DNA from: Acidobacteriota bacterium
GTDB taxonomy: Bacteria > Acidobacteriota > Vicinamibacteria > Vicinamibacterales > JACQTH01
Length of the DNA: 64,000 bases
Assembly (NCBI GenBank): GCA_016178075.1
Contig: JACOUA010000329.1
Coordinates: 3,539 to 67,538, forward strand
Direction: 5' to 3'
Under the pieces are notes generated by a model. That model worked only from the letters and a program-made list of their open reading frames with translations. It was not told where the DNA came from and did not search any database. The position numbers and the translations under genes were made by a program. Shown here piece by piece: positions 14,158 through 49,044 of the stretch; positions within the stretch are counted from its first letter, which is position 1, and each line of letters begins with the position of its first letter.

Positions 14158-14164
14158 TATTTAG

Positions 14165-14445
14165 TTTGCGGCGGGGCCCCACCCCCACCGCCTGCCACCG
14201 CTCGCTCACGCTCGCGGCGTTGATTACTTGCGACGATCCCTCTCCCAGGCATTCTCGGTGGGGGCCCCACCCCCACCGCCTGCCATCCGCCTTCGCCAAG
14301 GCTACGGCGGACAAGCGGCCTTGCCCGCCGACCAGCCTCCGTCAAGGCTTCGGCGGTCCGCCGTCGCTTCAGCGAAGGCGGAAGCTCGAAGAGCGGAGGC
14401 GGGTCGCTCACGCTCGCGGCGCTGACTGGTGGCGACGATCCGTTT
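14165..14445. repeat. Nested/tandem copies of the ~140-nt GC-rich interspersed repeat (copy 2, plus an internally deleted copy)
   Basis: GGGGCCCCACCCCCACCGCCTGCC occurs twice (~14172 and ~14262). CGCTCACGCTCGCGGCG..GCGACGATCC also occurs twice. 14256-14441 aligns to 1183-1330 with a ~50-nt insertion. Fills the ugd/GT4 divergent spacer. Confidence 0.85.
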
Positions 14446-14586
14446 TCAGAGACACGCTTCGGTCGAGGCCGAGCGGCCGATTCAAAATTCCCGACCTTAA
14501 CACACCAGGTAGTGGCAGTCAAGTTCCTCACCATCAAGAGGTTGCGGTTCCCTAAGCGGTTCGGGATACGATCGGGCGGGCTTCGC

Positions 14587-15708: not shown

Positions 15709-15710
15709 AA

Positions 15711-15811
15711 CAGTTCTCAGTCATCAGTTCACAGTTCTCAGTTAAGGCGAGGACTGACAGACAACCGAGAACACCCTGAGAACTGATAACTGAAACCTGA
15801 TAACTACTGGT
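15711..15811. repeat. Heptamer-periodic inverted repeat, word CAGTTYT / ARAACTG
   Basis: CAGTTCTCAGTCATCAGTTCACAGTTCTCAGTT ... CTGAGAACTGATAACTGAAACCTGATAACTACTG, between two co-directional GT4 genes. Confidence 0.85.
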
Positions 15812-15814
15812 CTT

Positions 15815-17080
15815 GTGATGCACATCGCCATCGACGCCCGTGAGCTCTGTGGCCGGCCGACCGGCGTTGGGCGGTATCTGTCCCACCTGCTCACCGCGTG
15901 GGGAGATATGGCCGAAACACGGGGCCACCGCTTCACGTTGTACACGCCGGCGCCGATCGACATCCAGACCGTGGCCCCCCGGGCACGAGCGCTCGATCTC
16001 GTCGTGCAGGTCATCGGCGGCCACCCGGGAGCCATCTGGGAACAGATTCGTCTTGCTTCGGCGCTGCGTCGCGATCGTCCGGACGTCCTCTTCGCGCCGG
16101 CCTACACGTCACCGCTGCGGTGCGGCGTCCCGACGGTGTTGACGGTTCACGACATCTCGTTCGAGGCGCATCCGGAGTGGTATCGCTGGCGTGAAGGCAC
16201 GCGCCTGCGCTGGCTGACGCGCAGGGCCGCGCGGGCTGCTCGCCTGGTGCTGACGGATTCGGAGTTCTCGAAGCGCGAGCTCGTCGAGCGGATGGGCATC
16301 AGCGCCAACGCCATCCGCGTCATCCGTCTGGGGGTCAGCGAGCCACGCCCTTCGACCGTTCGACCCTTCGACAGGCTCGGCGTCGTCCCGAGCGCGGTCG
16401 AGGGAGGAGAGCCACAGGGTCGTCCCAAGCCCAGTCGGGGGACGACGGCGCCCGACGCAGGCCCGTCGACGACGCCCGGGGCACGCGCGTCGCAGGCGGA
16501 GCGCGAGCCGCTCGTGTTGTTCGTCGGATCGTTGTTCAACCGGCGGCGTCTCCCGGATCTGTTGAGCGCCTTTCGCGACCTGACTCGAACCCATCCGGGG
16601 GCCAGGCTCGAGATCGTCGGGGAAGACCGCACATACCCGCACCAGGATCTTGCGGCCCTCGCCGTGCGACTGGGGATCCCGGAGCGAGTGTCGCTGCGAT
16701 CGTATGTCAGCGACGAGGAGCTGGTGCGCCTCTACGAGCGAGCCAGCGTCTTTGGATTTCTGTCTGAGTACGAGGGCTTCGGTCTGACGCCGCTGGAAGC
16801 CCTCGCCGCGGGCGTGCCGATTGTGGTGCTCGACACGGCTGTCGCCCGAGAGCTGTATGGCGATGCGGCGGTCTACGTCGGGCGCGGCGACGTTGGCGGG
16901 ACCGCAGCGGCGCTCGCGCAACTGATATCGGACGCCGACGCGCGGCGGCGGCGGCTCGACCGCGCGGCGGTCGTGCTTCGCGGGTTCTCCTGGTCCGAGG
17001 CAGCGCGTCAGACGCTCGAGGCGCTCGAAGCGGCCCACAGTCCAAAGCCCCCGTCCGGACTGCCTCATCAAGCCTCATGA
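15815..17080 (+). CDS. Glycosyltransferase family 4 carrying an in-frame palindromic-repeat insertion in the interdomain linker
   Basis: N-domain MMHIAIDARELCGRPTGVGRY. C-domain LVLFVGSLFNRRRL, EGFGLTPLEALAAGVPIVV. Between them sits ~45 aa of repeat-encoded sequence (RPFDRLGVVPSAVEGGEPQGRPKPSRGTTAPDAGPSTTPGARAS). Confidence 0.87.
   Translation: MMHIAIDARELCGRPTGVGRYLSHLLTAWGDMAETRGHRFTLYTPAPIDIQTVAPRARALDLVVQVIGGHPGAIWEQIRLASALRRDRPDVLFAPAYTSPLRCGVPTVLTVHDISFEAHPEWYRWREGTRLRWLTRRAARAARLVLTDSEFSKRELVERMGISANAIRVIRLGVSEPRPSTVRPFDRLGVVPSAVEGGEPQGRPKPSRGTTAPDAGPSTTPGARASQAEREPLVLFVGSLFNRRRLPDLLSAFRDLTRTHPGARLEIVGEDRTYPHQDLAALAVRLGIPERVSLRSYVSDEELVRLYERASVFGFLSEYEGFGLTPLEALAAGVPIVVLDTAVARELYGDAAVYVGRGDVGGTAAALAQLISDADARRRRLDRAAVVLRGFSWSEAARQTLEALEAAHSPKPPSGLPHQAS
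16340..16500. repeat. GC-rich palindromic repeat (two modules) inside the GT4 coding sequence
   Basis: CCTTCGACaggCTCGGcgtcgtcCCGAGcgcgGTCGAGGG, followed by GTCGTCCCaagcccagtcggGGGACGAC (~16419-16446). Confidence 0.85.
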
Positions 17081-17928
17081 CCGACCTCGCCATCGTCATT
17101 GTCAGCTACCAGGCACGCGAGCACCTGGAACGCTGTCTCGCTTCGCTGGGGGCTGCTCCACCGCAGCGGTCGCACGAAATCGTGGTGGTGGACAACGCGT
17201 CGAGTGACGGAAGCGCCGACCGCGTCGCGGCCGAATGGCCGTCGGTGACGCTGATCCGGCTCCCGGACAACAGGGGGTTCGCCGCCGCGACCAACGTCGG
17301 CATTCGGCGGACGCGCAGTGAATTCGTGCTGCTCCTGAACAGCGACGCGATCGTGCCGTCAGGCGCACTCGATCGGCTCGTGGCCGCGCTCGAGCGACAC
17401 GCTGACGCCGCCGCGATCGGGCCGCGCCTCGTCGACGACACGGGGCAGGTTGAACTCTCGTTCGGCCGCATGTTCTCGCCGCTGAACGAGCTGCGGCAAA
17501 AGCTCCTCGTTCGGGCCTCTCGGTCGGGGATTCCGGGCGCACGGGCCTATGTGCAGCGACTCGTCTCGCGACCCCGGACGCCGGACTGGATCAGTGGGGC
17601 GTGCCTGCTCGTCCGCCGGGCCGACGCCGATCGAGCCGGCCTGCTCGACGAGCGCTTCTTTCTGTACGCGGAAGACGTGGACTTCTGCGCGCGGCTGCGC
17701 GCGCTCGGCCGCCTGATCCGCTTCGCGCCGGAGATCGACGTCGTGCACGCGCGCGGGCAGTCGGTCGCGTTCGACCCTCGCGCCGCCGAGGCGCACTATC
17801 GACGCAGCCAGCTCGCGTTCTACGCGAAGCACGCGCCGCGCTGGCTGCCATGGCTGCGGCTCTATCTCGCACTACGCGGAAGGCTCCCGCCGAGTCGGGA
17901 TTCGGGCGTCGGGATTCGGGATTCGTAG
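17077..17928 (+). CDS. Glycosyltransferase family 2
   Basis: LAIVIVSYQAREHLERCLASL, VVVDNASSDGS, LNSDA. ATGA overlap with the upstream GT4. The last ~12 codons and the stop lie in a heptamer repeat arm. Confidence 0.87.
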   Translation: MTDLAIVIVSYQAREHLERCLASLGAAPPQRSHEIVVVDNASSDGSADRVAAEWPSVTLIRLPDNRGFAAATNVGIRRTRSEFVLLLNSDAIVPSGALDRLVAALERHADAAAIGPRLVDDTGQVELSFGRMFSPLNELRQKLLVRASRSGIPGARAYVQRLVSRPRTPDWISGACLLVRRADADRAGLLDERFFLYAEDVDFCARLRALGRLIRFAPEIDVVHARGQSVAFDPRAAEAHYRRSQLAFYAKHAPRWLPWLRLYLALRGRLPPSRDSGVGIRDS

Positions 17929-17988
17929 GCGGCGTGTCCCGCTGCGTGGGGCCATCGAATCCCGAGCCCCGATCCCGAATCCCGAGCC
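17891..17988. repeat. Heptamer-periodic inverted repeat, word GGGATTC / GAATCCC
   Basis: GAGTCGGGATTCGGGCGTCGGGATTCGGGATTCG ... CGAATCCCGAGCCCCGATCCCGAATCCCGAGC. The left arm supplies the GT2 C-terminus (..DSGVGIRDS*). Confidence 0.85.
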
Positions 17989-18007
17989 CTTGTGATACGT
18001 TTCACCG

Positions 18008-21682: not shown

Positions 21683-22630
21683 GTGAAGCCCCGCATCGTC
21701 ATCACCGGCGCGGCCGGGTTCATCGGATCGCACCTGGCCCAGCGGCTGCTCGATCTGGATTACGCCGTCATCGGGATCGACAATCTGCTGACCGGCGACA
21801 TCCAGAACATCGCGCACCTGGTGAACCGGGACTTCCTCTTCATGAAGCACGACGTCACGAACTACATCTACATCGACGGGCACGTCGACTTCGTGCTGCA
21901 CTGGGCGAGCCCTGCGAGCCCCATCGACTATCTCGAGCTGCCGATTCCGACGCTCAAGGTCGGTGCGCTCGGTACCCACAAGGTGCTGGGGCTGGCAAAG
22001 GCGAAGGGCGCGAAGTTCGTGCTCGCCTCCACCTCGGAAGTCTACGGCGACCCGCTCGAGCACCCGCAAAAGGAAACGTATTGGGGGAACGTGAACCCCA
22101 TCGGGCCGCGCGGTGTCTACGACGAAGCCAAGCGGTTCGCCGAGGCGATGACGGTCGCCTATCACCGCTATCACGGGCTCGACACCAAGATCGCCCGGAT
22201 CTTCAACACCTACGGGCCTCGCATGCGGGTCAACGACGGGCGGGCCGTCCCGACCTTCATCTCTCAGGCGCTTCGCGACGAGGACCTCACGATTTTCGGC
22301 GACGGCACCCAGACGCGCAGCTTCTGCTACATCAGCGACCTGGTCGACGGCATCGTCCGCCTGATGCACTCGAGCGCCAACGATCCGATCAACATCGGAA
22401 ACCCGCACGAGATGACGATCGAGCAGATCGCCCGATCGATCCTGACCATGACGGGATCGCGCAGCCGCCTCGTTTATCGTCCCCTCCCCATGGACGATCC
22501 CAAAGTGAGACAGCCGGACATCACGAAGGCCCGCAGCATCCTGGGCTGGGAGCCGACGGTCGGCCTGGAGGAGGGTCTCACGAAGACGATCGCGTACTTC
22601 AGAACGAAGGCATCGGCGATTGGCGACTGA
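21683..22630 (+). CDS. UDP-glucuronate decarboxylase (UDP-xylose synthase) family SDR
   Basis: [27 protein letters not shown] (YxxxK), [20 protein letters not shown] start just after the upstream stop. Confidence 0.9.
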
Positions 22631-22644
22631 CAGCCGCCAATCGA
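22615..22644. repeat. 9-bp hairpin CGATTGGCG-N10-CGCCAATCG spanning the UXS stop (convergent with the pgsA-like gene)
   Basis: Read directly. Uses the same GATTGGC word as the 31084-31257 element. Confidence 0.6.
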
Positions 22645-23223: not shown

Positions 23224-23308
23224 TAGTTTACAGTTCTCAGTTTTCAGTTTTCAGTTTTCAAGGCGCTGTTTCAACTGACGACTGACAACTGACAACTGAA
23301 AACTGTTC
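23224..23308. repeat. Heptamer-periodic inverted repeat, word CAGTTYT / ARAACTG
   Basis: ACAGTTCTCAGTTTTCAGTTTTCAGTTTTCA-aggcgctgtt-TCAACTGACGACTGACAACTGACAACTGAAAACTGT. The TCAGTT core pairs, with one mismatch per heptad. Confidence 0.88.
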
Positions 23309-25979: not shown

Positions 25980-26603
25980 TCACAGAAATTCTAGCACGCG
26001 CTCCCACGGCACCGCGCCGGCGCGCACGAGTCGTACGTCATCGCCGACGACATCGATGATGGTCGACGGCGCGCCCCCGGGTGTCGGCCCGGCGTCAACC
26101 ACGAGCGACACGAGCGGCAGATGCGCCATCACCTCGTCCGCGGTGATGGCCGCGGCGTGGCCGTGCGGGTTCGCGCTGGTCGCCGTCAGAGGGACCGACG
26201 CCAGGCGCGCGAGCGCACGCGCGACCTCATGATTCGGAACCCGAACCGCCACTCGTCCTCGCCCCCGATGCACGGCTGCGGCGATCGACGGCCAGGCGTC
26301 GACGATGAGCGTGAGCGGCCCGGGCCAGAAGGCCTCGGCGAGCCGGCGCGCGCGTGGCGACAAGCGGCCGACCTGCGCCTCGACTTGTGACCGATCGGCG
26401 GCGATCAGGGGAAGCGCCGACTCATGAGCGCGGCCCTTCACGCTGAACACCACCTCGACGGCGCCGGGGTTGTGCGCATCGGCGGCCAGCCCGTAGAGCG
26501 TGTCGGTCGGGAACGCGATGACGGCGCCGGACTTCAGCAGCGTCACCGCCTGTTGCAGGACGATCGGATCGGGCGAGACGGGATCGACGCGAAGGCGTTG
26601 CAT
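25980..26603 (-). CDS. tsaC: L-threonylcarbamoyladenylate synthase (YrdC/TsaC family)
   Basis: AFPTDTLYGLAADA, VFSVKGR, TSAN. The ORF-track start 26681 would overlap the MFS gene by 53 nt. ATG at 26603 (MQRLRV..) is preferred. Confidence 0.85.
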   Translation of the reverse strand: MQRLRVDPVSPDPIVLQQAVTLLKSGAVIAFPTDTLYGLAADAHNPGAVEVVFSVKGRAHESALPLIAADRSQVEAQVGRLSPRARRLAEAFWPGPLTLIVDAWPSIAAAVHRGRGRVAVRVPNHEVARALARLASVPLTATSANPHGHAAAITADEVMAHLPLVSLVVDAGPTPGGAPSTIIDVVGDDVRLVRAGAVPWERVLEFL

Positions 26604-26628
26604 GAGAAGTGAGAAGTCAGCATCCCGT

Positions 26629-27855: not shown

Positions 27856-27984
27856 AAAAAGTTATCAGTGCACAGTTCTCAGTTTTCAGGTTCGGACCTC
27901 GCCTGCTGCGCCTCGGCGAAATCGCTTCGGCAGAGGCCGTGAGCTCCAAACTGCGAACTGTGAACTGACAACTGAAAACTTTCT
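27856..27984. repeat. Heptamer-periodic inverted repeat, word CAGTTYT / ARAACTG; probable intrinsic terminator of glpX on the minus strand
   Basis: AAAAAGTTATCAGTGCACAGTTCTCAGTTTTCAG ... ACTGCGAACTGTGAACTGACAACTGAAAACTTT. On the minus strand the hairpin is followed by TTTTT. Confidence 0.85.
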
Positions 27985-30282: not shown

Positions 30283-31080
30283 CTACGTTCTCGATGATTC
30301 AGCCACCGCGCGAACGGTCGCGCCACGACCGAGACCGAGGCGTCTGGCCGCGCTGTCACGGTTGGCGGCGATCTCGACGAACCCGCTGCTGCCGATGAGC
30401 GCGCAGACCTCTCCTTCCGCCACCTCGGCGTAGGTCGAGACGAAGCGATCGACGCGCTGCTCGCCCGCGTGCAGGCGCACGCCGCGATCCAGCGACGCCG
30501 ACGCGAGCGCGGCCCGATCGATGTTGGTGATCAGATTCCCGAAGCGATCCACGCGAAGGATGCAGCCGGCGATCGCGTGGGGCGACACCTGCGGCGCCGG
30601 AATCTCGAGGCGCTGGACGTCGTCGACGCGAGGCCCCAGATCCTCCAGCGGCGTACCACGAGCCAGCCAGCCGGCGGCGGGCGCGAACCGATCGCGTCCC
30701 TCGAACGTGCGGGTGACGTCGGGCAGCGCATATCGGGCGTTGGTCAGCTCGACGACCGACGCCGGGCGATCCGCGAGCACGCCGGTCAGGACACCGTTGT
30801 CGGGCGCGACGAACCGATAGCCTCCAGCGCTCGCGGCAATGCCGCGTCGTGCGGTCCCGACGGCGGGGTCCACCACCACGACGAACACCGTGCCGGCCGG
30901 AAAGAAGCGGTAGCTCGATCGGAGCTCGAGGCTGGCCGACAACACGTCCTGGGGCGGGATGTCGTGGGTGATGTCGACCAGCGTCGCCTCGTCACAGATG
31001 CCCAGGATCACGCCCTTCATCGTCCCGACGTAGTGATCCTGCAGGCCGAAGTCGGTCAGCAGGGCGATGACGGGTTTCAT
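30283..31080 (-). CDS. SAM hydroxide adenosyltransferase (DUF62; chlorinase/fluorinase-related)
   Basis: MKPVIALLTDFGLQDHYVGTMKGVILGI, VVVDPAVGTARRGI. Confidence 0.88.
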   Translation of the reverse strand: MKPVIALLTDFGLQDHYVGTMKGVILGICDEATLVDITHDIPPQDVLSASLELRSSYRFFPAGTVFVVVVDPAVGTARRGIAASAGGYRFVAPDNGVLTGVLADRPASVVELTNARYALPDVTRTFEGRDRFAPAAGWLARGTPLEDLGPRVDDVQRLEIPAPQVSPHAIAGCILRVDRFGNLITNIDRAALASASLDRGVRLHAGEQRVDRFVSTYAEVAEGEVCALIGSSGFVEIAANRDSAARRLGLGRGATVRAVAESSRT

Positions 31081-31083
31081 GAG

Positions 31084-31257
31084 AATTGACGATTGGCGAT
31101 TGGAGATTGACGATTGATTGTTGATTGGCGAATGGGCGGAATTGCCAGGAACGAAGGACGATTGAGAGCAATTCCGATCAGGCGTCCTTGATTCGTCAAT
31201 TCCGCGCCATCGTCAATCGCCAATCAATCCTCAATCGTCACTCGCCAATCGTCAATG
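31084..31257. repeat. ~175-nt nested hairpin, heptamer word GATTGRC / GYCAATC
   Basis: Left arm ATTGACGATTGGCGATTGGAGATTGACGATTGATTGTTGATTGGCG. Right arm CGCCATCGTCAATCGCCAATCAATCCTCAATCGTCACTCGCCAATCGTCAAT. The centre holds CGGAATTG..CAATTCCG and AAGGACG..CGTCCTT sub-hairpins. Confidence 0.88.
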
Positions 31258-31261
31258 CAGA

Positions 31262-31960
31262 TTAGGCGAGATAGCCCGGTTTCCTGAACAGAATCTCGCG
31301 CAGGTTGGTCTTCAGCAGGAACGAGTCGCTCACGCGAAGGCCGCCGAACAGCTTGATGATGTCGCGATTCTGGAGGACGCGCACCCGGCCGCGCGCGGCG
31401 GGATAGGGACGGTACTTCAGATTCGCCTCGTCGACGATGGCGTACTTGACGTAGCGCGGGTCCCGGGACGCCGCCGTGCCGAAAAACCCGAGCAGCGCGC
31501 CGTCGATGCGCAGCGCGCGCGTCAGGATGCCCGCCAGCACCGTGGCGGCCGCGGGGTCGAGATAGTCGAACAGGTCCCAGCACAGCACGCCGTCAACGCT
31601 GCCGTCGGCGTGCGACAGGCGGGTCTTGAGAAACGCGGGGAACGCCTCGAGCGCGCTCTTGCGGGTGTGACGATCGAGATCCGCGTACAGATCCTCGACG
31701 TGGATCTTGCAGCCGCCCTGCTCCCCCAGAAAGGTGATGTTCGAGCCGACCACGGCGCCGACGTCGAGGATCACGGGGCCCTCGCGCTGGCGGAGCACCG
31801 CCAGGAATTTTTTCAGGGCCTTGCTGGGAAAGATGGGCTCAGCGGCCCGCGGCGCGGGGCGATCGATGACGCCCACCTCCTGTCCGGCCCCGGCGCGCGG
31901 GCGCTGGCCGAACAACGAACCCAGAGCAGGAAGGCCTCGTCCCTTGTCTGCGCCGCTCAC
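31262..31960 (-). CDS. Class I SAM-dependent methyltransferase (substrate unknown)
   Basis: ILDVGAVVGSNITFLG (motif I-like) and DGVLCWDLFDYL. 232 aa. Confidence 0.65.
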   Translation of the reverse strand: MSGADKGRGLPALGSLFGQRPRAGAGQEVGVIDRPAPRAAEPIFPSKALKKFLAVLRQREGPVILDVGAVVGSNITFLGEQGGCKIHVEDLYADLDRHTRKSALEAFPAFLKTRLSHADGSVDGVLCWDLFDYLDPAAATVLAGILTRALRIDGALLGFFGTAASRDPRYVKYAIVDEANLKYRPYPAARGRVRVLQNRDIIKLFGGLRVSDSFLLKTNLREILFRKPGYLA

Positions 31961-32569: not shown

Positions 32570-32662
32570 TCGTGACCGTCGTGTGATTCTAGAAGTCCCG
32601 CCCGAAGTTGTCTAGTGCCTTTTATTGCCGAGGGTTAGGGGCGATGCTATGATGCCGTCAGG

Positions 32663-33820: not shown

Positions 33821-34881
33821 TGCGAGTTGTCGTAGCCATGTCGGGCGGCGTGGATTCCTCCGTCGCCGCGGCCCTGCTCGTCGAGCAGGGGCACGAGGTC
33901 ATCGGGCTGTCGATGCAGCTCTACGATCAGCAGCAGGGCGAGGTGCGCTTTGGAAGCTGCTGCACGCTGGACGATCTCCACGACGCGCGGCGCGTGGCCC
34001 AGCGGCTCGGCATTCCGCACTACATCCTGAACTTCGAGCGGCAGTTCGACGATCACGTCGTCTCGAACTTCGTCCGCGAGTACCTGACGGGGCGCACGCC
34101 GATCCCGTGCGCGCACTGCAACAGTGACCTGAAGTTCTCGGCGCTGCTCGAGCGGGCGCGCGCGCTGGGTGCCGACGGCGTGGCGACGGGCCATTACGCC
34201 CGCGTCGCGCGCGGCGCCGCCGGCAGGCTGACGCTCCGGCGCGGCGCCGACCGGGCCAAGGACCAGTCCTATTTCCTGTTCTCCCTCACGCAGGATCAGC
34301 TCGATCACGCGCGGTTCCCGGTCGGGGACCTCGCGAAGTCCGAGGTCCGCGATCATGCGCGACGCCTCGACCTGCCGGTCGCCAACAAGCCCGACAGCCA
34401 CGAAATCTGCTTCATCCCCGACGGTGAGTACGCCGGGTTCGTCGAGCGTCATGCCGCCTCAGGCGTCGGAAGCGGGTGGATAATGAATCACGAAGGGCGC
34501 CCGCTTGGTCGTCACGACGGCATTCACCGGTTCACCGTCGGCCAACGGAAGGGGCTCGGTCTTTCGGGCGCGCATCCCTTGTACGTGCTGGAGCTTCGTC
34601 CCGAGTCGCAGACCGTCGTCGTCGGGCCGCGCGCCGCGCTCGAGAAGGTGACGCTGACCGCGTCCGGCGTGAACTGGGTCGGGGGCGCGCCTCCAGAGGC
34701 GCGCGTGACGGTCACCGCGCAGATTCGCCATCGGCACCAGGCCGCGCCCGCTTCCTGGCGTTCGCTCGCCTGTGATCGTCTCGCCCTCGAATTCGAGACG
34801 CCCCAAACCGCGATCACGCCCGGGCAGGCGGTGGTCCTGTATGACGGGGATGAAGTGCTGGGCGGAGGTTGGATCGATTAG
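33820..34881 (+). CDS. mnmA: tRNA 2-thiouridine(34) synthase
   Basis: MRVVVAMSGGVDSSVAA PP-loop, CAHCNS. TAATG overlap with the desulfurase. The ORF-track start 33298 is an upstream out-of-gene extension. Confidence 0.93.
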   Translation: MRVVVAMSGGVDSSVAAALLVEQGHEVIGLSMQLYDQQQGEVRFGSCCTLDDLHDARRVAQRLGIPHYILNFERQFDDHVVSNFVREYLTGRTPIPCAHCNSDLKFSALLERARALGADGVATGHYARVARGAAGRLTLRRGADRAKDQSYFLFSLTQDQLDHARFPVGDLAKSEVRDHARRLDLPVANKPDSHEICFIPDGEYAGFVERHAASGVGSGWIMNHEGRPLGRHDGIHRFTVGQRKGLGLSGAHPLYVLELRPESQTVVVGPRAALEKVTLTASGVNWVGGAPPEARVTVTAQIRHRHQAAPASWRSLACDRLALEFETPQTAITPGQAVVLYDGDEVLGGGWID

Positions 34882-35037
34882 GACCCGTCCCGGAATAAGT
34901 GTGCCATTCTGGGCGTCGAGGCGCCCGCCCGGCAAGGCGCGAGGAGCGCGCATACCGGGCGTATGTAAGCGACGAGCAACGAAGCCCGGCGGGATGCATC
35001 GGCGTCCAGAATGGTGCACTTATTCCGGGACGGGTCC
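34881..35037. mobile_element. MITE-like hairpin element with ~35-bp terminal inverted repeats and TTA flanks, inserted between the mnmA and trxB stop codons
   Basis: GGACCCGTCCCGGAATAAGTGTGCCATTCTGG ... CCAGAATGGTGCACTTATTCCGGGACGGGTCC. TTA lies on both sides (34878-80 and 35038-40). The core is shared with 49051-49255. Confidence 0.6.
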
Positions 35038-36009
35038 TTAGGCGGTCACTTGCGCTTCGCCGAGGTGCTGCGGGAGCCCCTCGAGGTATTTCTCGGCGTC
35101 CATCGCCGCCATGCACCCCGATCCTGCGGCCGTGACGGCCTGCCGGTACACGTGATCCTGCACATCACCGCAGGCGAAGACGCCCGGGACGTTGGTCCGC
35201 GCGCCCGAGTGCGTCAGGATGTAGCCGTTCGGATCCATCTCGAGCTGTCCGGTGAACAGCCTGGTGTTCGGTGTGTGGCCGATCGCCACGAACACGCCGT
35301 CGACCGCAAGACCGCCGGCCTCGCCGGTTGCCGTATTCGTCCACGTGAGGCCGGTCACCTCGCCCTTGTCGCCGGCGACGATGTCGTCGACGACGGTGTT
35401 CCAAAGGAACGAGATCTTCGTGTTGGCAAAGGCTTTGTCCTGCATGATCTTCGACGCCCTCAGCCGGTTGCGCCTGTGGATGACCGTCACGTGGGAGGCG
35501 AATTTCGTCAGAAACAGGGCTTCTTCCATCGCGGAATCGCCGCCGCCGACCACGGCGATCGGACGCCCTCTAAAGAAGTAGCCGTCGCACGTCGCGCACG
35601 TCGAGACGCCGTGCCCCATGAGGGTTCGCTCGCTCGGGAGGCCGAGCAGACGCGCCGACGCGCCGGTCGCGACGATGACCGTTCGGGCGCGATGGTTCTC
35701 GCCATCCGAGGTCACGACGAACGGCCGAGCCCTCAGATCCGCCGCGTTGACATCGCGAGCGATGAGCTCGGCACCGAACCGCTCGGCCTGCGCGCGCATT
35801 TCCGCCATCAGGTCCGGTCCCAGGATGCCTTCCCGGTGCCCCGGATAGTTCTCGACGAGCGTCGTCAGCATGAGCTGCCCGCCGGCCTCGGCCCCCTCGA
35901 ACACGAGCGGGTTGAGATTGGCGCGGGCGGCATACAGCGCCGCCGTCAGGCCGGCGGGGCCCGAGCCGATGACGATCACGTTGCGAAGGTCTGACATGTT
36001 CACTTTCAC
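35038..36009 (-). CDS. trxB: Thioredoxin-disulfide reductase
   Basis: [17 protein letters not shown], redox-active [16 protein letters not shown]. Confidence 0.93.
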
Positions 36010-36012: not shown

Positions 36013-36116
36013 TGGCTGTCAGCTCTCAGCTGTCGGCTTTCAGCCGTCGGCCTACACCTTCATTCGAACTGCAGGTCTTGTTCTAGCTGAGAGCTGACAG
36101 CTGAGAGCTGAGAGCT
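36013..36116. repeat. Heptamer-periodic inverted repeat, word CAGCTNT / ANAGCTG
   Basis: GGCTGTCAGCTCTCAGCTGTCGGCTTTCAGC ... GCTGAGAGCTGACAGCTGAGAGCTGAGAGC, between the trxA stop and the trxB start. Confidence 0.88.
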
Positions 36117-38897: not shown

Positions 38898-39009
38898 GTA
38901 GTTTTCAGTTCTCAGTGCTCAGTTGTCAGTTCAAAGACTCCAGCCTGCGGCCGGTGTCCTTGAAAAACCACGGCGTCGGAAAACTGACAACTGAGAACTG
39001 AAAACTATT
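38898..39009. repeat. Heptamer-periodic inverted repeat, word CAGTTYT / ARAACTG, between convergent genes
   Basis: GTAGTTTTCAGTTCTCAGTGCTCAGTTGTCAGTT ... AAAACTGACAACTGAGAACTGAAAACTATTTT. Confidence 0.88.
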
Positions 39010-42896: not shown

Positions 42897-45839
42897 ATGA
42901 GACGTTGGAGGATTGAGGTGTTGAGGCCAGTTCTGTACGTCGCTCTGCTGGCGCTCGCAATTGGGATCGCCAGCCCCGCGGCGGCGCAGGAGTTCCGCGG
43001 GCGCATCAGCGGAACCGTCACCGACAACAGCGGCGGCGTGCTCCCGGGCGTGACCGTCACCGCCACCAGCCCGGCGATGATTCAGCCGCAGGCGGTGGTG
43101 ACCGGCGCGGATGGCGTGTACCGCCTGATCGCGCTTCCGGCCGGCCTCTATACGGTGACGTTCGAGCTGTCTGGTTTCAACTCGCTCAAGCGCGAGGGGA
43201 TCCGCGTCGTCATCAACCAGACATTGACGCTGAACGCCGAGCTGCAGGTCGCCTCACTGCAAGAGACCGTGACGGTGAGCGGTGAGTCGCCCGTTGTCGA
43301 CACGTCGACGACCACGGTCGGCACGAACTTCACGAAGGAGCTGCTGACCGAGATTCCGAACGCACGTGACATCTGGGCAGCCATGGCGCAAGCCCCTGGC
43401 TTCCAGGTGACCGGCTACGATGTCGGTGGCTCGCACACCGGAACTCAGACCGGCTACGTTACCTACGGCGTCAGCCAGCAGAACACCACTCGGATCGACG
43501 GTGTCAACACGAGCGAGGGCACGAGCGCCAACGCCGGGTACTTCGACTTCGGGTCGTTCGAAGAGTTCCAGCTCGGCGGCGCCGGGAACGACGCCGCACA
43601 GGACGTGCCCGGCGCGTCGCTGAACATCACCGTCAAGTCCGGCGGCGACCGGTTCAGCGGCAACTGGTACAGCGACTGGGAGAACCACAGCACCATCAGC
43701 GACAACGTGCCCGACTACCTCAAGACGCCGTTCCAGAAGAGCAGCGACGGATTCTTCACCCGGACGGCCGTTCAACGTGGCAATCAGATCGATCGGCAGT
43801 ACGACATCAACCCGAACGTCGGCGGCCCGCTCTGGAGAGGCAAGGCGTGGTTCTTTACCTCGTGGCGTCTCAACGATCAATACAAGTACGTGCTCGGGTT
43901 CGACGAGCTCGCGCGGTCGAAGCTCAGCAACAAGTACACCCTGAAGGGTACGTTCCAGCTCTCGAAGAACAACCAGCTCATCGCCTTCCTCAACAAGCGC
44001 GAGAAGCTGCAGGCCCTGCGCGAGTTTGGCCCGACCGTCCCGCTGTCGGCCGCCTACTATCAATCGTCTCGGAACTATCCGTGGAAGTTCGAGTGGACGA
44101 GCGTGCTGTCGAGCCGCATGTTCCTCGATGTGCTGGCAGGCAACTGGTACAACTTCTTCCCGCTGCGACCGCAGACCGAGGTGGGCGTGTGGCCGATCGA
44201 CAAGTTCGTGCCCGGGCGAATCAACCTGAACGACAACACCTATTTCGCGGGCGGCGCGAACGATTCATATCAGGACCAGAAGCGGTTCAAGCCGCAGACG
44301 TTGACGACCCTTTCGTTCTTCCAGGACGGGTGGCACGGCGCACACGACTTCAAGTTTGGCTTCGAGGCGCGCCGCGACCGTCGCATCCTCGGAAACGACG
44401 AGCCGTTCAACATCTTCTACCGCGACAGAGACGGTGTCCCCTCCGAACTTGAAATCTACAACGGTCCCGTGGCGCCGACCAACGACGTCAACGTGCGCAG
44501 CGCGTTCGTGCAGGACAACTGGAAGTTCAACGAGAAGCTGACGCTCAACCTCGGCTTCAGGGTCGATCACTACACCGACGGCTGGCCCGAGCAGCAGTTC
44601 GCGCCGGCAGGCGTTCCCGCGCTGGCCAACGCGACCGATCCGCGGATCGTCAGCTTCTTCGCGGCGAAAACGATTTCGGCGCAGATTGTGGCGAGATCGA
44701 CAACGGCCGGACCCCGCGCCGGGTTCGCGTACGACCTGGCGGGCAATGGGAAGTCGGTCGTCAAGGGCTACTACGGCCGGTTCTATTTCAACTCCGCCGA
44801 CCTGATTGCCGACAACCAAAACCCGGTGGGGTTCGCCCGACTGCGGTATCAGTTCAGGGACGCCAACGGCAACAAGCTCCTCGACAGCCCGGCCGAATTG
44901 GGAAATTTCATCACGACGGCCGGCGGCGGCGGGTTCGTCACGGTCGATCCGAACCTGAAACGGCCCTACGGCGACGAGGTGTCGGCGCACTACGAGCAGG
45001 AGATTCGAGAAGGTCTCTCGGGTCGCTTCTCGTATGTCTACAAGAACCTCCGCAATGAGTGGGCGGAGGTCGACCTCGGCCGCGTCAACGCCCAGACCAT
45101 TCCCGTCAACGTCGTCGATCGAGGACCCGACGGGATTCTGGGTAATGCGGATGATGCGACCCGAACGCTGTACGACATCCCGGCCGGGACGCCGAGCCAG
45201 CGCACGTTCACGAATCCGACGAGCCCGCAGTACAACTCCGACTACAACACGGTGGAGTGGGCGGTCAACCGGCGGCTCAAGGGCGGCTGGATGGTGCTGA
45301 CATCGTTCGAGTACTCCTGGCTGAAGGAGTTCGTCGGCGCCACGTCTTCGACGAGCAGCACCGGCGCGGCGGGGAACACGAAGACGTACTCGTGGAACCG
45401 CAACCTCCGGCAGGCGGATCGCGAAACCACGACGATCTGGAACTACAAGCTGATCGGACGATACATGCTGCCGCTAGAGGTCGGGATCAGCGGGTCGTAC
45501 AAGCTCCAGAGCGGACGCCGGTGGGGCCGCGCCGTGAGCTTGAGCGTGCCGAACCTGGGCGCCCAGACCGTCCGCGTGGAACCCGTCACCTCGCATCGCG
45601 CCCCGAACGTCAGCATCGTCGATCTCCGGTTCGACAAGTCGATCAAGATTCCGGGGAACAACGGTGGCCGCTTGACCGCGATGGTGGACGTGTTCAACCT
45701 GTTGAACTCGGATGTCCCCATTACGTTTCGTACGCTGACCGGCAACGTGGCGGCCGGACAGCCGTACGGCAACTTCGGGGAAGTGACCGCGATCCTCGAC
45801 CCGCGCATCGTGCGGTTCGGCATCCGGTACGACTTCTAA
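42897..45839 (+). CDS. TonB-dependent receptor-like outer-membrane protein with an N-terminal carboxypeptidase-regulatory-like domain (paralogue 1)
   Basis: Signal peptide, GRISGTVTDNSGGVLPGVTVTATSP...DGVYRLIALPAGLYTVTFELSGF, large beta-barrel, C-terminal ..RIVRFGIRYDF. GGAGGG RBS 6 nt before the ATG. Confidence 0.88.
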   Translation: MRRWRIEVLRPVLYVALLALAIGIASPAAAQEFRGRISGTVTDNSGGVLPGVTVTATSPAMIQPQAVVTGADGVYRLIALPAGLYTVTFELSGFNSLKREGIRVVINQTLTLNAELQVASLQETVTVSGESPVVDTSTTTVGTNFTKELLTEIPNARDIWAAMAQAPGFQVTGYDVGGSHTGTQTGYVTYGVSQQNTTRIDGVNTSEGTSANAGYFDFGSFEEFQLGGAGNDAAQDVPGASLNITVKSGGDRFSGNWYSDWENHSTISDNVPDYLKTPFQKSSDGFFTRTAVQRGNQIDRQYDINPNVGGPLWRGKAWFFTSWRLNDQYKYVLGFDELARSKLSNKYTLKGTFQLSKNNQLIAFLNKREKLQALREFGPTVPLSAAYYQSSRNYPWKFEWTSVLSSRMFLDVLAGNWYNFFPLRPQTEVGVWPIDKFVPGRINLNDNTYFAGGANDSYQDQKRFKPQTLTTLSFFQDGWHGAHDFKFGFEARRDRRILGNDEPFNIFYRDRDGVPSELEIYNGPVAPTNDVNVRSAFVQDNWKFNEKLTLNLGFRVDHYTDGWPEQQFAPAGVPALANATDPRIVSFFAAKTISAQIVARSTTAGPRAGFAYDLAGNGKSVVKGYYGRFYFNSADLIADNQNPVGFARLRYQFRDANGNKLLDSPAELGNFITTAGGGGFVTVDPNLKRPYGDEVSAHYEQEIREGLSGRFSYVYKNLRNEWAEVDLGRVNAQTIPVNVVDRGPDGILGNADDATRTLYDIPAGTPSQRTFTNPTSPQYNSDYNTVEWAVNRRLKGGWMVLTSFEYSWLKEFVGATSSTSSTGAAGNTKTYSWNRNLRQADRETTTIWNYKLIGRYMLPLEVGISGSYKLQSGRRWGRAVSLSVPNLGAQTVRVEPVTSHRAPNVSIVDLRFDKSIKIPGNNGGRLTAMVDVFNLLNSDVPITFRTLTGNVAAGQPYGNFGEVTAILDPRIVRFGIRYDF

Positions 45840-45902: not shown

Positions 45903-45932
45903 AGAGGCCGGGTTCACCCGGCCTCTTTTTTT
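45903..45932 (+). terminator. Rho-independent terminator (AGAGGCCGG-gttcac-CCGGCCTCT + T7)
   Basis: 9-bp GC-rich stem followed by TTTTTTT. Confidence 0.85.
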
Positions 45933-46038: not shown

Positions 46039-48939
46039 ATGAGACCTCGAAGCATCGGCCTTTGGGTCGCGCTGATCGCGCTGGCGATCGGCCTGGCCAC
46101 CCCCGCGGCGGCCCAAGAGCTCCGTGGGCGCATCACCGGCACGGTCACCGACAACACCGGTGCCGTGCTACCTGGCGTCTCGGTCACGGCCAGCGGACCC
46201 GCGCTCATCCAGCCGCAGAGCAGCGTCACTGGAGCCGATGGGAGCTACCGCTTCCCGGCGCTCCCGACCGGCGTCTTCACCTTGACGTATGAGCTTGCGG
46301 GATTCCAGACGCTCAAGCGCGAACAGATCCGCCTGGGGTTGAACATGACCCTGACGGTGAACGTCGAGCTGCAGCTCTCGTCGCTGCAGGAAACCGTGAC
46401 GATCACCGGTGAATCACCCACGGTCGACGTCAAGACCACCGCCATCGGGACCAACTTCACCAAGGAGCTGCTGCAGGACATTCCCAACGCACGGGACATT
46501 TGGGCGGCGATGGCGCAGGCCCCAGGGTTCCAGATGACCGGCTTCGACGTCGGCGGGTCGCACACCGGGACGCAGACGGGGTACATCACCTACGGTGTCG
46601 GCGACCAGAACAAGACGTTTCTCGAGGGCATCAACGTGACTGAAGGCACCGGCGGAAACGCCGGCTACTTCGACTTTGGATCCTTCGAGGAATTTCAGCT
46701 CGGTGGCGCCGGCAACATGGGAGAGCAAGCGGGCCCCGGCGCGTTCCTCAACCTGACCATCAAATCGGGGGGCGATCGATTCGCCGGGCAGTTCTACCTG
46801 GACTACGAAAACGATGCCACGATCTCGGACAACGTGCCGAGCGCTTTCAAAGCGCCGGGCGGTGTCGACTCACGCGGGTTCAAGGCCCCAACGATCCGCG
46901 ACCCGGCGACCGGACAGTTGTTGGGCCTGGCGCGCGGCAACCCGATCACCAAGCAGTACGACCTGAACGTGAATGGCGGCGGCCCGATCAAGCGCGGCAA
47001 GGCCTGGTTTTTCACGAGCTACCGCGACAACAATCAGTACACGACGATTTTGGGCCTTCCCGGGGTGACCGCGCAGAGTCAGCTCGTGAACTGGCCGACG
47101 CTCAAGGGCACGTATCAGATCAGCAAGAGCAATCAGTTCATCGCCTTCTACAACGAGCGATCCAAGCTGCAACCGCTGCGCGGCCTCTCGCTTGCCCGGC
47201 CTGCGGAATCGGCACAGTGGCAGGATTCGAAGAACCGGCCGCAAAAGTACGAGTGGACGAGCGTCCTTTCCCAGCGGGCGTTCCTCGACATTCAGTACTC
47301 GTACTGGGGTAACTACTTCCCGCTCTTCCCGACGCAGACGAAGTCCACGTCGACCGAGGGAGTCCCCGTCGGTCGCATCGACCTCACGACCAACCAGGAG
47401 TCCGGCGCCAACGTCCTGTACCACTTCCGCACGACGCTGAAGCCGCAGTTCTCGGGAAGCCTTGCCTACTTCCAGGACAACTGGGGCGGCACGCACAACT
47501 TCAAGTTCGGGTTCGAGGCGTATCGCGAGCGGAGGAAGTTCCTCCGCTTCCAACCGGGCAACATCTACTACCGGGATCGCGAGGGCCGGCCGTCGGAAGT
47601 CGACATCTACAACACCCCCAATGAAGCCGCCGACGATTCCAATAGCCTGAGCATTTACGTCCAGGATGGGTGGAGCGTCTCGCGGGCGCTGACCATCAAT
47701 GCCGGGGTTCGGCTGGATCACTACAGGCTCGGCTGGCCGGCTCAGAGCTTCACACCTGAGCAAACGCAGTACTTCCAGCCGGTCAACACGCCCGACACGA
47801 CCGTCGCGAAGTTCAATTCGGTGAGCCCGCGCGTGGGGCTCGCCTGGGATTTCGGCGGACAAGGAAAGAGCGTCGTCAAAGCCTTTTACGGACGCTTCTA
47901 CTACAACCCCAGCACCGACATCAGCTCGTTGGAGAATCCCGTGAGTCAGTCGGCCCGGCGCTACCAGTTCAACGACCTGAACGGAAACCGGGTGCTCGAC
48001 GGGCCGCAAGAGCTGGGACGCTTACTGTCGAGCGTGGGCGGTGGCGGCAACGTGAGGGTCGATCGCGATCTCGAGCACGCCTGGGGCCAGGAAGTCTCGA
48101 CGCATTTCGAGCGCGAGCTGGCCGAGGCGCTCTCGGCTCGAGTCTCCTACGTGTACAAGGGCACGCGAAACGGGTGGGCCGAGGTGGACCTCGCTCGAGT
48201 CAATGCTTATACAGCGCCGTTCCCATTTGTGGATGTCGGGCCCGACAACATTCGCGGCACATCAGACGACCAGACGCTCAATCTCTTCGATCGCCCGGCT
48301 GGCACTCCGAGTCAACGAACGTTCACGAATCCCGGACGCATTCAGGGAGTGCCGGCGTACGAGGGTGATTACCACACCATCGAGCTGGCGCTAAACCGCC
48401 GGTTCAAGGACAAGTGGCTCCTCCTCACGTCGTTCGAACAAACCTGGGCCGACGACTTCCGCGGCACGGGCGTGGGAACTGGGACACTCGCGACGGTGCA
48501 ACAGGGCACGGCGTTCCTCTGGCAGCCGAACCGGCGACGCCTGGGTCGAGAAGCGACCACGTTCTGGAACTACAAGGCGATCGGCCGCTATGTCTTCCCC
48601 TGGGACATCGGCGTCAGCGGGTCCTACAAGTTCCAGAGCGGCTTCAACTACGCGAGAACGATCAGCGTAAGCCTGCCCATCGCCGGAAGCGAAGAGATCC
48701 GGACCGGGCCACTAAAGGACACCCGCGCCCAAAACGTCCACATCGTTGATGTGCGGCTCGAGAAGATGATCAACTTCGGTGCTCGCCGCGGAAAGTTCAG
48801 CGCCATGGTCGACGTTTTCAACGCGCTGAACGCGAACCCGCTGACCAACTTCCGCGTCGTCACCGGGTCGCGCTACAACGAAGTGATCGCGCTGCTCGAT
48901 CCGCGCATCGTGCGGTTCGGCGTGCGGTACGAGTTCTAG
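46039..48939 (+). CDS. TonB-dependent receptor-like outer-membrane protein with a carboxypeptidase-regulatory-like domain (paralogue 2)
   Basis: Collinear with paralogue 1 (GRITGTVTDNTGAVLPGVSVTASGP...; ..RIVRFGVRYEF). Same GGAGGG-N6-ATGAGA translation start context. Confidence 0.88.
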   Translation: MRPRSIGLWVALIALAIGLATPAAAQELRGRITGTVTDNTGAVLPGVSVTASGPALIQPQSSVTGADGSYRFPALPTGVFTLTYELAGFQTLKREQIRLGLNMTLTVNVELQLSSLQETVTITGESPTVDVKTTAIGTNFTKELLQDIPNARDIWAAMAQAPGFQMTGFDVGGSHTGTQTGYITYGVGDQNKTFLEGINVTEGTGGNAGYFDFGSFEEFQLGGAGNMGEQAGPGAFLNLTIKSGGDRFAGQFYLDYENDATISDNVPSAFKAPGGVDSRGFKAPTIRDPATGQLLGLARGNPITKQYDLNVNGGGPIKRGKAWFFTSYRDNNQYTTILGLPGVTAQSQLVNWPTLKGTYQISKSNQFIAFYNERSKLQPLRGLSLARPAESAQWQDSKNRPQKYEWTSVLSQRAFLDIQYSYWGNYFPLFPTQTKSTSTEGVPVGRIDLTTNQESGANVLYHFRTTLKPQFSGSLAYFQDNWGGTHNFKFGFEAYRERRKFLRFQPGNIYYRDREGRPSEVDIYNTPNEAADDSNSLSIYVQDGWSVSRALTINAGVRLDHYRLGWPAQSFTPEQTQYFQPVNTPDTTVAKFNSVSPRVGLAWDFGGQGKSVVKAFYGRFYYNPSTDISSLENPVSQSARRYQFNDLNGNRVLDGPQELGRLLSSVGGGGNVRVDRDLEHAWGQEVSTHFERELAEALSARVSYVYKGTRNGWAEVDLARVNAYTAPFPFVDVGPDNIRGTSDDQTLNLFDRPAGTPSQRTFTNPGRIQGVPAYEGDYHTIELALNRRFKDKWLLLTSFEQTWADDFRGTGVGTGTLATVQQGTAFLWQPNRRRLGREATTFWNYKAIGRYVFPWDIGVSGSYKFQSGFNYARTISVSLPIAGSEEIRTGPLKDTRAQNVHIVDVRLEKMINFGARRGKFSAMVDVFNALNANPLTNFRVVTGSRYNEVIALLDPRIVRFGVRYEF

Positions 48940-49017
48940 GCACGAAGGCACGAGGGCTGGCCGCGCCCGGGCACGGTGAGGCGCGGCCGACCCCACAAGG
49001 ACACGAAGAAGACTGTG

Positions 49018-49044
49018 AGGCCGGGGTTACCCGGCCTTTTTTTT
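49018..49044 (+). terminator. Rho-independent terminator (GGCCGGG-gtta-CCCGGCC + T8)
   Basis: 7-bp GC stem followed by TTTTTTTT. Confidence 0.85.

Follow-up and report, generated by a model that had tools for sequence, protein, structure and literature searches.

An intergenic heptad-repeat hairpin of Vicinamibacterales, interpreted as one member of a population of short-tandem-repeat quasi-palindromes

Introduction

Heptanucleotide repeats have been recorded in bacteria for decades, and both their function and the mechanism behind them are still described as uncharacterised (PMC4692102, PMC2670836). We analysed here a long hairpin made of such heptads, lying between a gene for a 232-aa protein and a gene of the SAM hydroxide adenosyltransferase family (DUF62) in a 64-kb stretch of DNA from the metagenome-assembled genome of a soil Acidobacteriota bacterium of the order Vicinamibacterales (assembly GCA_016178075.1, contig JACOUA010000329.1, positions 3,539 to 67,538 of the forward strand); “the window” means this whole stretch, and coordinates refer to it unless another locus is named. 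The best explanation that we found for this hairpin, hereafter the target, is that it belongs to a population of intergenic quasi-palindromes built of short tandem repeats, which extends through the genome and the order and in which period 7 prevails and period 8 or 9 is found in some members. The heptad-hairpin architecture is already known from other phyla, where its mechanism is unexplained, and no account of tandem-repeat hairpins in Acidobacteria or Vicinamibacter was found in the literature searched.

Cyanobacterial genomes each carry several different words of the so-called short tandemly repeated repetitive (STRR) sequences, named STRR1 to STRR3. A 7-bp STRR hairpin lies between hupS and hupL, and transcript stability or translational coupling has been proposed as its role (PMC2670836). 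The elements of our window share with the STRR sequences the tandem 7-nt units, the intergenic location, including between co-transcribed genes, and the capacity to form hairpins (PMC2670836), and the target shows the features of heptanucleotide repeats in general, namely head-to-tail 7-nt units, many intergenic copies and more than one word per genome. They differ in belonging to a GC-rich genome of Acidobacteriota (Vicinamibacterales), in using other words and in occurring with periods 8 and 9 as well.

In Xanthomonas, (GGGANTN)n/GGGAATC heptamers are about 90% intergenic, lie near the end of the upstream open reading frame (ORF) and are rare between divergent genes (Rehm et al. 2015, PMC4692102). 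Each genome has 70-75 convergent pairs with stem-loop potential in which the G-rich array comes first, and the heptamers do not sit at the same genes in two related species (PMC4692102). Heterogeneous heptads with fixed and variable positions, and convergent G-rich arrays of the same polarity, are common to both systems, and one word of the window, CGGGATT/GAATCCC at 17892-17989, is near-identical to the Xanthomonas one. The Xanthomonas repeats, however, have one dominant word and have been studied with a focus on G-quadruplexes, whereas dozens of words occur here, most of them without G-runs. The target itself has the convergent-pair architecture, with arrays on opposite strands and the G-rich array first, but lacks the GGGAATC or quadruplex type of G-run, since its units GATTGAC, GATTGGC and GATTGGA contain no regularly spaced ones.

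The TAACTGA repeats are found in marine Beggiatoaceae, Cyanobacteria and Bacteroidetes, with 169 direct sets and only 1 indirect repeat in Beggiatoaceae, where they lie immediately ahead of start codons (MacGregor 2015, PMC4679880). The commonest word of our window, (N)AACTGA (six loci), is the same and stands in the same orientation beside start codons at 10961, 15710, 23225 and 27860. The window copies, in contrast, have an inverted partner, and the target, whose word is NNCAATC, does not carry the feature of that class. Repetitive extragenic palindromes (REPs), known also in the arrangements called BIMEs and REPINs, are near-identical 20-40 nt units that depend on a RAYT transposase, the REPINs consisting of two inverted units (PMC3116915, PMC3733652). 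Like our elements, they are extragenic palindromes of transcribed, non-promoter spacers, form a long hairpin and have had roles in mRNA stability proposed for them; here, however, only a 5-nt core is common to the copies, and the arms are tandem arrays. Finally, template switching in quasi-palindromes is a documented route by which hairpin arms are created, homogenised and extended (PMC8794818, PMC7202029, PMC13100816).

Anatomy of the target hairpin

An earlier note on this DNA, made from the sequence alone, had described a heptad hairpin with GATTGRC words at 31084-31257, and both its coordinates and its sequences were confirmed, with folding z-scores from -9 to -11. The element proper occupies 31085-31256, inside a 174-base gap between two co-oriented minus-strand genes. 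It is an inverted repeat of two 60-nt arms, 83% complementary and separated by 52 nt, and the longest inverted repeat of the window:

31085-31144, read on the plus strand: 5' arm, about eight heptads, G-rich (22 G, 5 C)
31145-31196: centre of the rod, degenerate GATTG/CAATT words with GC-rich segments
31197-31256, read on the plus strand: 3' arm, NNCAATC heptads, C-rich (23 C, 7 G)

On the plus strand, the 5' arm runs ATTGACG ATTGGCG ATTGGAG ATTGACG ATTGATT GTTGATT and then further inward, and the reverse complement of the 3' arm runs ATTGACG ATTGGCG AGTGACG ATTGAGG ATTGATT GGCGATT and then further inward. The order of the units is mirrored between the arms, with an identity of 5.75/7 in the same register against 3.2/7 in the other registers, and a pairing shifted by one heptad is also possible (43 nt, 84% complementary). 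The outermost 15 nt, ATTGACGATTGGCGA (31085-31099) and TCGCCAATCGTCAAT (31242-31256), are exact complements, as the note had said. Tandem Repeats Finder reports period 7 at 31085-31117 (4.7 copies) and at 31209-31256 (7.3 copies), and the triple GATTGNN pattern GATTGNNGATTGNNGATTG, allowing up to two mismatches, has 15 matches in the window against 0.06 expected. The G+C content of the target is 49%, compared with 66% for the window.

Around the apex, AAGGACG (31154-31160) pairs with CGTCCTT (31183-31189); CGGAATTG lies at 31137-31144, and CAATTCCG is present twice, at 31169-31176 and 31197-31204, the first copy being an alternative partner for CGGAATTG. These motifs, which had been read as further, nested stems, are indeed at the places given for them, but they do not form nested sub-hairpins, since the minimum-energy fold is a single continuous rod of which they are inner segments. 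The RNA of the minus strand, which is the sense of the genes, folds with -92.3 kcal/mol (z -9.2), that of the plus strand with -99.6 kcal/mol (z -11.2), and the DNA of the plus strand with -58.2 kcal/mol (z -9.6), and none of 200 shuffles matched the folding energy of the target. The hairpin is found base for base in three other, independent assemblies (a contig of GCA_016197075.1 and two Logan assemblies), and it is therefore no assembly artefact but a real structure, far beyond chance.

The two genes that enclose the target are the following:

31262-31960, minus strand: upstream gene, 232 aa, adjoining DUF62 across Vicinamibacterales
30283-31080, minus strand: downstream gene, SAM hydroxide adenosyltransferase (SAM_HAT/DUF62; Pfam E 1e-52)

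The TAA stop codon of the 232-aa gene (31262-31264) is 5 nt from the stem base, and the ATG of DUF62 (31078-31080) is 4 nt from it, so that the order on the sense strand is TAA, 5 nt, hairpin, 4 nt (TCTC) and ATG.

A population of array hairpins with a preferred vocabulary

Among the periods from 4 to 12, strong tracts are confined in the window to period 7 (61 positions, as compared with 0 for each of the others), and 16 heptad elements are found in its 64 kb, all of them intergenic or overlapping gene ends. For the order as a whole, we used the surroundings of DUF62 homologues, taken from 160 genomes and metagenome contigs and amounting to 1.9 Mb, referred to as related loci (L numbers), all of which sample one syntenic neighbourhood. 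These contain 133 arrays of period 7, 45 of period 8, 40 of period 9, 3 of period 5, 1 of period 10 and 1 of period 11, the counts for periods 6, 9 and 12 taking in coding repeats. Inverted pairing is common in the related loci (69 paired against 112 unpaired tracts), whereas it is occasional in STRR sequences. The target had been called the largest heptamer hairpin, which is true of the window as regards inverted-repeat length, but a composite GATTG/CAGACTG hairpin in L010 (13270-13610, about 310 nt, -125 kcal/mol) is larger.

After collapsing rotation and strand, the 133 period-7 arrays still comprise 86 distinct words, and the words do not merge into one consensus. The heptad words nevertheless have a preferred vocabulary and are not arbitrary. 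Some 5-nt cores recur in independent genomes beyond what composition predicts, first AAGTT (10 loci, z 6.1) and GATTG (10 loci, z 5.1), then TCAGC, TTCAG and GAAGT; GATTG/CAATC, the core of the target, is thus among the two most recurrent (10 of the 55 loci with arrays). Five other genomes (L010, L062, L091, L108 and L153) have the exact GATTG triple-heptad pattern, as do three loci of the window, and six word families cover the 16 window loci: CAGTT/AACTG with 6, GATTG/CAATC with 3, CAGCT, GGGATT and AGGCT/GAGCC with 2 each, and GAAGTG with 1. The words related to the target that had been pointed out at 22615-22644, 7232-7319 and 49258-49349 are all real. The earlier note's view that the sequences are unrelated from locus to locus was consequently too strong, and its interpretation as a whole is partly supported.

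Window hairpins of the same word have unrelated centres or loops and differ in arm order. The consensus unit may also be specific to each arm (TCAGTTT against TCAGTTG at 23225, TCAGTTT against TCAGTTA at 10961, AGCTATC against AGCTCTC at 57056), and this implies amplification within each arm. The outermost unit is identical between the arms in 7 of 12 window hairpins, and pairing is best at the stem base.

The recurrent cores bring in a possible role at the level of DNA, either by offering binding sites to a protein that recognises a 5-nt core once per 7 bp, or by serving the nucleoid as a structural element of the cruciform or G-quadruplex type. The recurrence of cores across genomes would fit it, as would the tendency of within-unit variation to fall side by side (in 62 of 127 arrays the two positions that vary most adjoin each other, with 1/3 expected), the equally good folding of both strands, and the quadruplexes formed by G-rich heptamers in Xanthomonas and Nostoc (PMC4692102). 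There are, however, far too many words for a single binding protein, and quadruplexes cannot be general when most words, GATTGRC included, have no G-runs. DNA structure alone does not predict the depletion from promoter spacers described below, and the concentration of variation on two positions is weak: the top two positions hold 67% of the variants, with 62% expected. We regard a DNA-level role as very improbable. A strict heptad rule of five conserved and two variable positions was likewise rejected, as these figures amount to a weak tendency only.

Placement in transcribed, promoter-free spacers

The 16 window elements lie in co-directional (12) and convergent (4) spacers, with none in the 8 divergent, promoter-bearing spacers; most of them span the spacer from stop codon to start codon, and about a quarter of the non-promoter spacers of the window hold one. 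The related loci repeat this distribution: among 128 loci, arrays of period 7 or 8 occupy 65 of 436 co-directional spacers (15%), 29 of 116 convergent ones (25%) and 7 of 172 divergent ones (4%), the odds ratio of non-divergent against divergent occupancy being 4.8 (p 4e-6). Co-directional arrays lie at a median of 4 nt from the upstream stop and 13 nt from the downstream start, and in 37 of the 65 cases both stop and start are within 25 nt.

Turnover between close relatives

The 232-aa gene and DUF62 are neighbours throughout the order, and the size of the gap between them is highly variable. It is 3-20 nt in L010, L031, L045, L047 and L051, whereas in other loci it is filled by heptads (CAGCTNT in L013, CAATCCN in L153, GATTG/CAATC-like words in L021), by octamers (CAAATCCT in L012, GTGAACTC in L017, GGATTGCA in L129), by CACGAA-type units (L052) or, in some species, by nonamers, and these repeats form hairpins or single arms. 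The same spacer is, then, repeatedly occupied by differing sequences and can be almost empty, and given that only 3-20 nt separate the two genes in many relatives, the hairpin is dispensable for this gene pair.

Pairs of closely related genomes document how the elements change. L047 and L111, with flanks about 90% identical, share a GGTGRCT hairpin that differs by one 7-nt unit per arm, beside the loop; a different unit variant is dominant or homogenised in each genome, and both versions fold (-41.6 and -45.3 kcal/mol). Between L006 and L062 (flanks 91-96% identical), a 65-nt heptad hairpin is cleanly present in one genome and missing from the other; at a second site of this pair, the complete octamer hairpin of L006 corresponds to the C-rich 3' arm alone in L062, the additional 52 nt of L006 starting directly after a stop codon and two units of the shared arm carrying the same C/T change between the two genomes. 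In L013 and L043, with flanks 95-97% identical, the spacer before DUF62 holds a wholly different hairpin in each genome. A comparison of three homologous hairpin pairs revealed no compensatory substitutions, and in L043 and L013 each arm has the same two changes, in direct orientation, a pattern that resembles copying more than selection on base pairs. The elements thus change unit by unit and through copying, and not through point mutations that are then compensated. The earlier note had argued for a process that either generates or selects structure; these two are not separable by the present data, in which the three pairs show no compensatory substitutions.

Proposed origin and retention

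We lean towards considering the target an STRR-like quasi-palindrome, shaped by slippage of units and by copying between the arms and tolerated because it folds on itself. An array would arise and alter its length in place through whole-unit slippage, and the arms would be created and held matched by inter-arm copying, that is, by template switching during replication of the quasi-palindrome, a process that explains matched multi-nucleotide changes of the arms, their homogenisation and extension, and the derivation of a hairpin from a single arm. The elements would persist in spacers that are transcribed and free of promoters because an insert complementary to itself can fold out of the way; once folded, the target would leave about 9 nt between TAA and ATG at the base of the stem, a distance comparable to that of the bare 3-20 nt spacers of the relatives. 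On reaching the stop codon, a ribosome would open the base of the stem and release the nucleotides that immediately precede the DUF62 ATG, and translational coupling could then survive the insertion or could come to depend on the hairpin. Any putative further benefit, such as hindering exonucleases at the 3' end or offering a site to RNase III, would be secondary. What is observed directly is the anatomy, the genomic context, the turnover, the matched unit indels and the polarity; we infer from there that slippage and template switching are at work, and that the elements are retained through neutrality or translational coupling.

Several points weigh against this proposal. Quasi-palindrome template switching is a general mutational mechanism, and slippage combined with it predicts neither the preference for periods 7-8 over 5, 10 and 11, nor the recurrent core vocabulary, nor the G-first polarity described in the next section (34 of 44 period-7 pairs). 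A stem of about -92 kcal/mol at 4 nt from the ATG could block the translation of DUF62 and then would not be neutral. At the target locus itself there is no variation in unit number, the four assemblies being identical and all from one population, and the gene calls outside the window are approximate, coming from a crude GC3-based caller applied to 128 GC-rich loci. In addition, an exact look-up of the DUF62 protein gave only identical copies, all from this one population, the nearest genomes in the genome collection are metagenome-assembled genomes (MAGs) of Vicinamibacterales (Acidobacteriota) with 55-63% identity in DUF62, and a metagenome scan with the same protein gave nothing above 63% identity; lacking a relative closer than this, we could not trace the history of the target hairpin.

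The main competitor to slippage and copying is selection for a cis-acting RNA element of the operon, which would protect the 3' end of the upstream mRNA, provide an RNase III site separating the cistrons, or act as an obligatory coupling device that masks the DUF62 start for as long as the upstream gene is not translated. It finds support in the confinement of the elements to transcribed spacers and their strong depletion in divergent, promoter-bearing ones, in stems that abut stop and start codons, in the optimal pairing at the stem base with its identical outermost units, in the matched indels that preserve the stem of L047 and L111, in a G-first polarity specific to array hairpins, and in the like roles proposed for the cyanobacterial STRR hairpins (PMC2670836). 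Against this, many relatives have only 3-20 nt in the 232-aa/DUF62 spacer, hairpins are lost or replaced between genomes with 91-97% identical flanks, and the three pairs show no compensatory substitutions. Sense and antisense RNAs fold with equal ease, the sense strand being the more stable one in just 5 of 9 oriented hairpins, with no G-U signature of selection at the RNA level, and there is no Rfam match: Rfam 15 gave nothing at gathering threshold across the window and nothing at E<=1 in 30800-31500, and the search for known RNAs found no tRNA or tmRNA. All in all, we hold selection as an RNA element to be unlikely.

Polarity of the arms

In hairpins made of arrays, the 5' arm is the G-rich one. 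The 5' arm has G>C rather than C>G in 34:10 pairs of period 7, 11:3 of period 8 and 5:1 of period 9, and a similar excess is obtained for G+T over A+C (39:8, p 6e-6). This arrangement of a G-rich 5' arm and a C-rich 3' arm reads the same on either strand, and the target conforms to it. Unpaired arrays are polar as well, the G-rich ones adjoining stop codons and the C-rich ones adjoining start codons. A general trait of hairpins or of spacer composition as the cause was ruled out by two controls, given that ordinary perfect inverted repeats of the same loci have no G/C bias between their arms (28:24 intergenic, 44:43 genic) and that GC skew is absent from spacers without arrays, both past their stops and ahead of their starts. 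Arrays providing stop codons in all three frames were also ruled out as the cause, since CAGTTNN arms contain no stop codons. One idea for a candidate cause is that a C-rich arm transcribed first would be an exposed Rho loading site, while one transcribed second would be captured at once by its partner.

A minority of elements has C-first or A/C-first polarity (L030 4780-4850, L052 9800-9995, L055 12150, L068 7292, and the ACACGGAA octamers in L030 and L045). Some of these opposite-polarity words, namely ACACGGAA and AATAACC/AAATAAC, are found in more than one genome, so the exceptions to the G-first rule may be specific to the word.

Period preference, recurrent cores and G-first polarity would all be accounted for if heptad and octad arrays were the products of one dedicated directional process, common to Vicinamibacteria, Cyanobacteria, Xanthomonas and Beggiatoaceae. 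Such a process, enzymatic or coupled to replication or transcription, would lay short units with the G-rich strand 5' to 3' from a gene boundary into the spacer and would prefer the cores GATTG, AAGTT/AACTG and GGGATT. We judge it quite unlikely, but if polarity and vocabulary did reflect it, a new mechanism of genome change would be at hand. Otherwise, the elements still matter for the annotation of MAGs, where they fill operon spacers, mimic terminators and overlap gene ends, and they are likely to affect operon expression. The Vicinamibacterales lineage offers a dense natural experiment on heptad repeats, and the most useful new points in it are that G-first polarity is specific to arrays, that unit indels are matched between the arms, and that hairpins are rapidly exchanged for others between genomes that are near-identical.

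Mobility

A further alternative is that the hairpins are non-autonomous mobile elements of the MITE (a miniature transposon with inverted repeats), REP or REPIN-like type, whose arms would be the binding or cleavage sites of a transposase encoded elsewhere, with one enzyme for each word family. The clean presence or absence of the whole 65-nt hairpin between L006 and L062 is what such an element would leave, a limited set of cores recurs across genomes, and two inverted arms with a spacer recall the REPINs (PMC3116915). There is also one hairpin, at 10961-11066, flanked by an 11-nt direct repeat, CACTACTCAGT, at 10955-10965 and 11063-11073; in the sense direction, the TAG stop remains with the upstream copy and the GTG start with the downstream one, as would result if the origin of the hairpin had involved the duplication of an overlapping TAGTG stop/start junction. 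This is, however, the sole case above the null among 13 window hairpins. The other 12 lack any such duplication, the target included, its best flanking direct repeat being 8 nt with a mismatch and within the null (95th percentile 8, maximum 10).

Copies of the same word share neither loop nor arm order, length changes by 7-nt units within the arms, single arms exist, and the window also has a genuine family of diverged repeats, which behaves otherwise. The target was accordingly rejected as a MITE, for having no target-site duplication above the null and no shared internal sequence, and as a REP or REPIN, on account of the differing arm order and centre of same-core elements and of the 86 words among 133 arrays. 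That the hairpins are not the spread of one mobile sequence, as the earlier note had concluded, is borne out by this number of words, the unrelated loops, the flanking repeats in 1 of 13 cases, the other words and periods in the orthologous spacer and the turnover between flanks 90-97% identical. Mobility of this kind is improbable in our opinion.

Gene context and termination

The promoter scan places the promoter-like sites near the target's gene run in the divergent spacer only (32586-32653), with a single one for the minus-strand genes:

32586-32614, minus strand: the only promoter-like site for the minus-strand gene run

There are no promoter-like or terminator-like sites at the target, and no promoter-like site between the hairpin and DUF62. 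Most likely, the target is part of a transcript that runs from a bactofilin gene through the 232-aa gene and DUF62 to an acyl-CoA dehydrogenase gene. No Shine-Dalgarno motif precedes the DUF62 ATG, and only about a quarter of the predicted starts of the window have one. The 232-aa protein, previously named a methyltransferase, is possibly a divergent class-I methyltransferase; this is plausible but weakly supported, all matches to methyltransferase domains being sub-threshold (E 0.003-0.025; NCBIfam 20 bits with a cut-off of 155), and no relative was found for it in the PDB.

In eleven related loci (L012, L042, L047, L067, L101, L102, L106, L108, L111, L117 and L129), a conserved GATAAGCTA ends about 6-12 nt before the DUF62 ATG, downstream of any hairpin. 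Its spacing would fit the -10 box of a leaderless or short-leader DUF62 transcript, and the motif is absent at the window's own locus.

A terminator or attenuator without a U-tract, bidirectional in convergent spacers and setting the ratio of upstream to downstream expression in operons, would suit the top occupancy of convergent spacers, the median of 4 nt to the upstream stop and the very stable stems, as well as those relatives in which the hairpin comes before GATAAGCTA, which looks like a separate DUF62 promoter. At the target, in contrast, the terminator scan gave nothing, the stem on the sense strand is followed by TCTCATG, and termination at 4 nt before the ATG, with no promoter-like site after it, would silence DUF62 and the following genes. 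The target is excluded as an intrinsic (Rho-independent) terminator for having no U-tract, and its arms are AT-enriched (49% GC against 66% for the genome), unlike the typical GC-rich terminator stems. Canonical hairpin and U-tract terminators do exist in this genome, at 45903-45932 and 49017-49044 (GAGGCCGGG..CCCGGCCTC, then T7-8), and the heptad hairpins are hence not the standard terminator of the organism. A terminator role thus seems to us an improbable explanation of the target.

Other elements of the window

Besides the target, the heptad elements of the window are these:

3005-3049: small CAGTTNN/GAAAACT hairpin, convergent spacer
7234-7309: GATTGCG/CAATCCG hairpin with the core of the target, 15 nt upstream of a minus-strand gene start
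10961-11066: TCAGTTT/AACTGAT hairpin, filling a co-directional spacer
15710-15805: CAGTTNN/NNAACTG hairpin, from stop to start of two plus-strand genes
17892-17989: CGGGATT/GAATCCC hairpin, its 5' arm overlapping the 3' end of the upstream ORF
22615-22644: short CGATTGGCG..CGCCAATCG hairpin, convergent spacer
23225-23305: CAGTTTT/CAACTGA hairpin
27860-27980: CAGTTNN/NNAACTG hairpin, filling a co-directional spacer
36015-36116: CAGCTNT/ANAGCTG hairpin, filling a co-directional spacer
38900-39006: CAGTTNN/NNAACTG hairpin, convergent spacer
49258-49349: GGCTCAT/TGAGCCN tract of periods 7 and 21, at the start of a large plus-strand ORF or shortly ahead of it
54083-54180: AGGCTNN/NNAGCCT hairpin, 20 nt past a stop codon
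54781-54856: GAAGTGA/TCACTTC hairpin, convergent spacer
57056-57167: CAGCTAT/AGCTGAG hairpin, between the minus-strand genes 56148-57050 and 57177-57974
61366-61403, plus strand: unpaired (CCCGAAT)n single arm, C-rich on the sense strand, in the gap from a stop to the following start

Some of these elements reach into genes. The arm at 17892-17928 lies inside the predicted ORF 17077-17928, whose last residues and stop appear to be encoded by heptads, and in L017 the TGA stop of the upstream gene is within the first octamer unit. The TGAGCCN tract at 49295-49349, in which period 21 amounts to 2.3 copies, overlaps the first predicted codons of a 1111-aa ORF.

Unpaired C-rich or A/C-rich arrays stand directly before start codons, in the window as (ACTTCTC)2 at 26603-26617 and (CCCGAAT)5 at 61366-61403, and in the relatives as (AACTCTG)13 in L045 (10844-10938), (CACCAANT)n downstream of DUF62 in L046 and L037, and (CCAATCG)10 in L091 (9380-9470). 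Such unpaired arms may represent a stage on the way to a hairpin, or may be leader elements themselves.

Two palindromic elements, at 34880-35038 and 49047-49259, have outer arms of 53 nt and 28 nt and a core of about 70 nt that aligns between them (GGGCGYCGAGGCGCCCGCCC.GCAAGGCGCGAGGAG...ATACCGGG.GTAT...CGACGAGCAACG); they make up a family of their own, separate from the heptad hairpins and either MITE-like or a conventional diverged repeat. Another short sequence, CGCGTTGGGGTGG, occurs exactly at 1843-1855, 49190-49202 and 58112-58124 (0.19 expected), each copy being the 3' half of a small intergenic CCCCAACGCG...CGCGTTGGGG hairpin, and looks like a REP-like family of short palindromes. The divergent spacer 14158-14511 (354 nt) contains two copies of GGGGCCCCACCCCCACCGCCTGCCA and a 27-nt inverted repeat (14286-14312/14356-14382), with -171 kcal/mol, and is not heptad-based. 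Finally, the two canonical terminators follow adjacent genes of about 970 aa (42897-45839 and 46039-48939), which have near-identical, strong ribosome-binding contexts (GGAGGGCA.TTTCATGAGAC) and look like a highly expressed paralogous pair.

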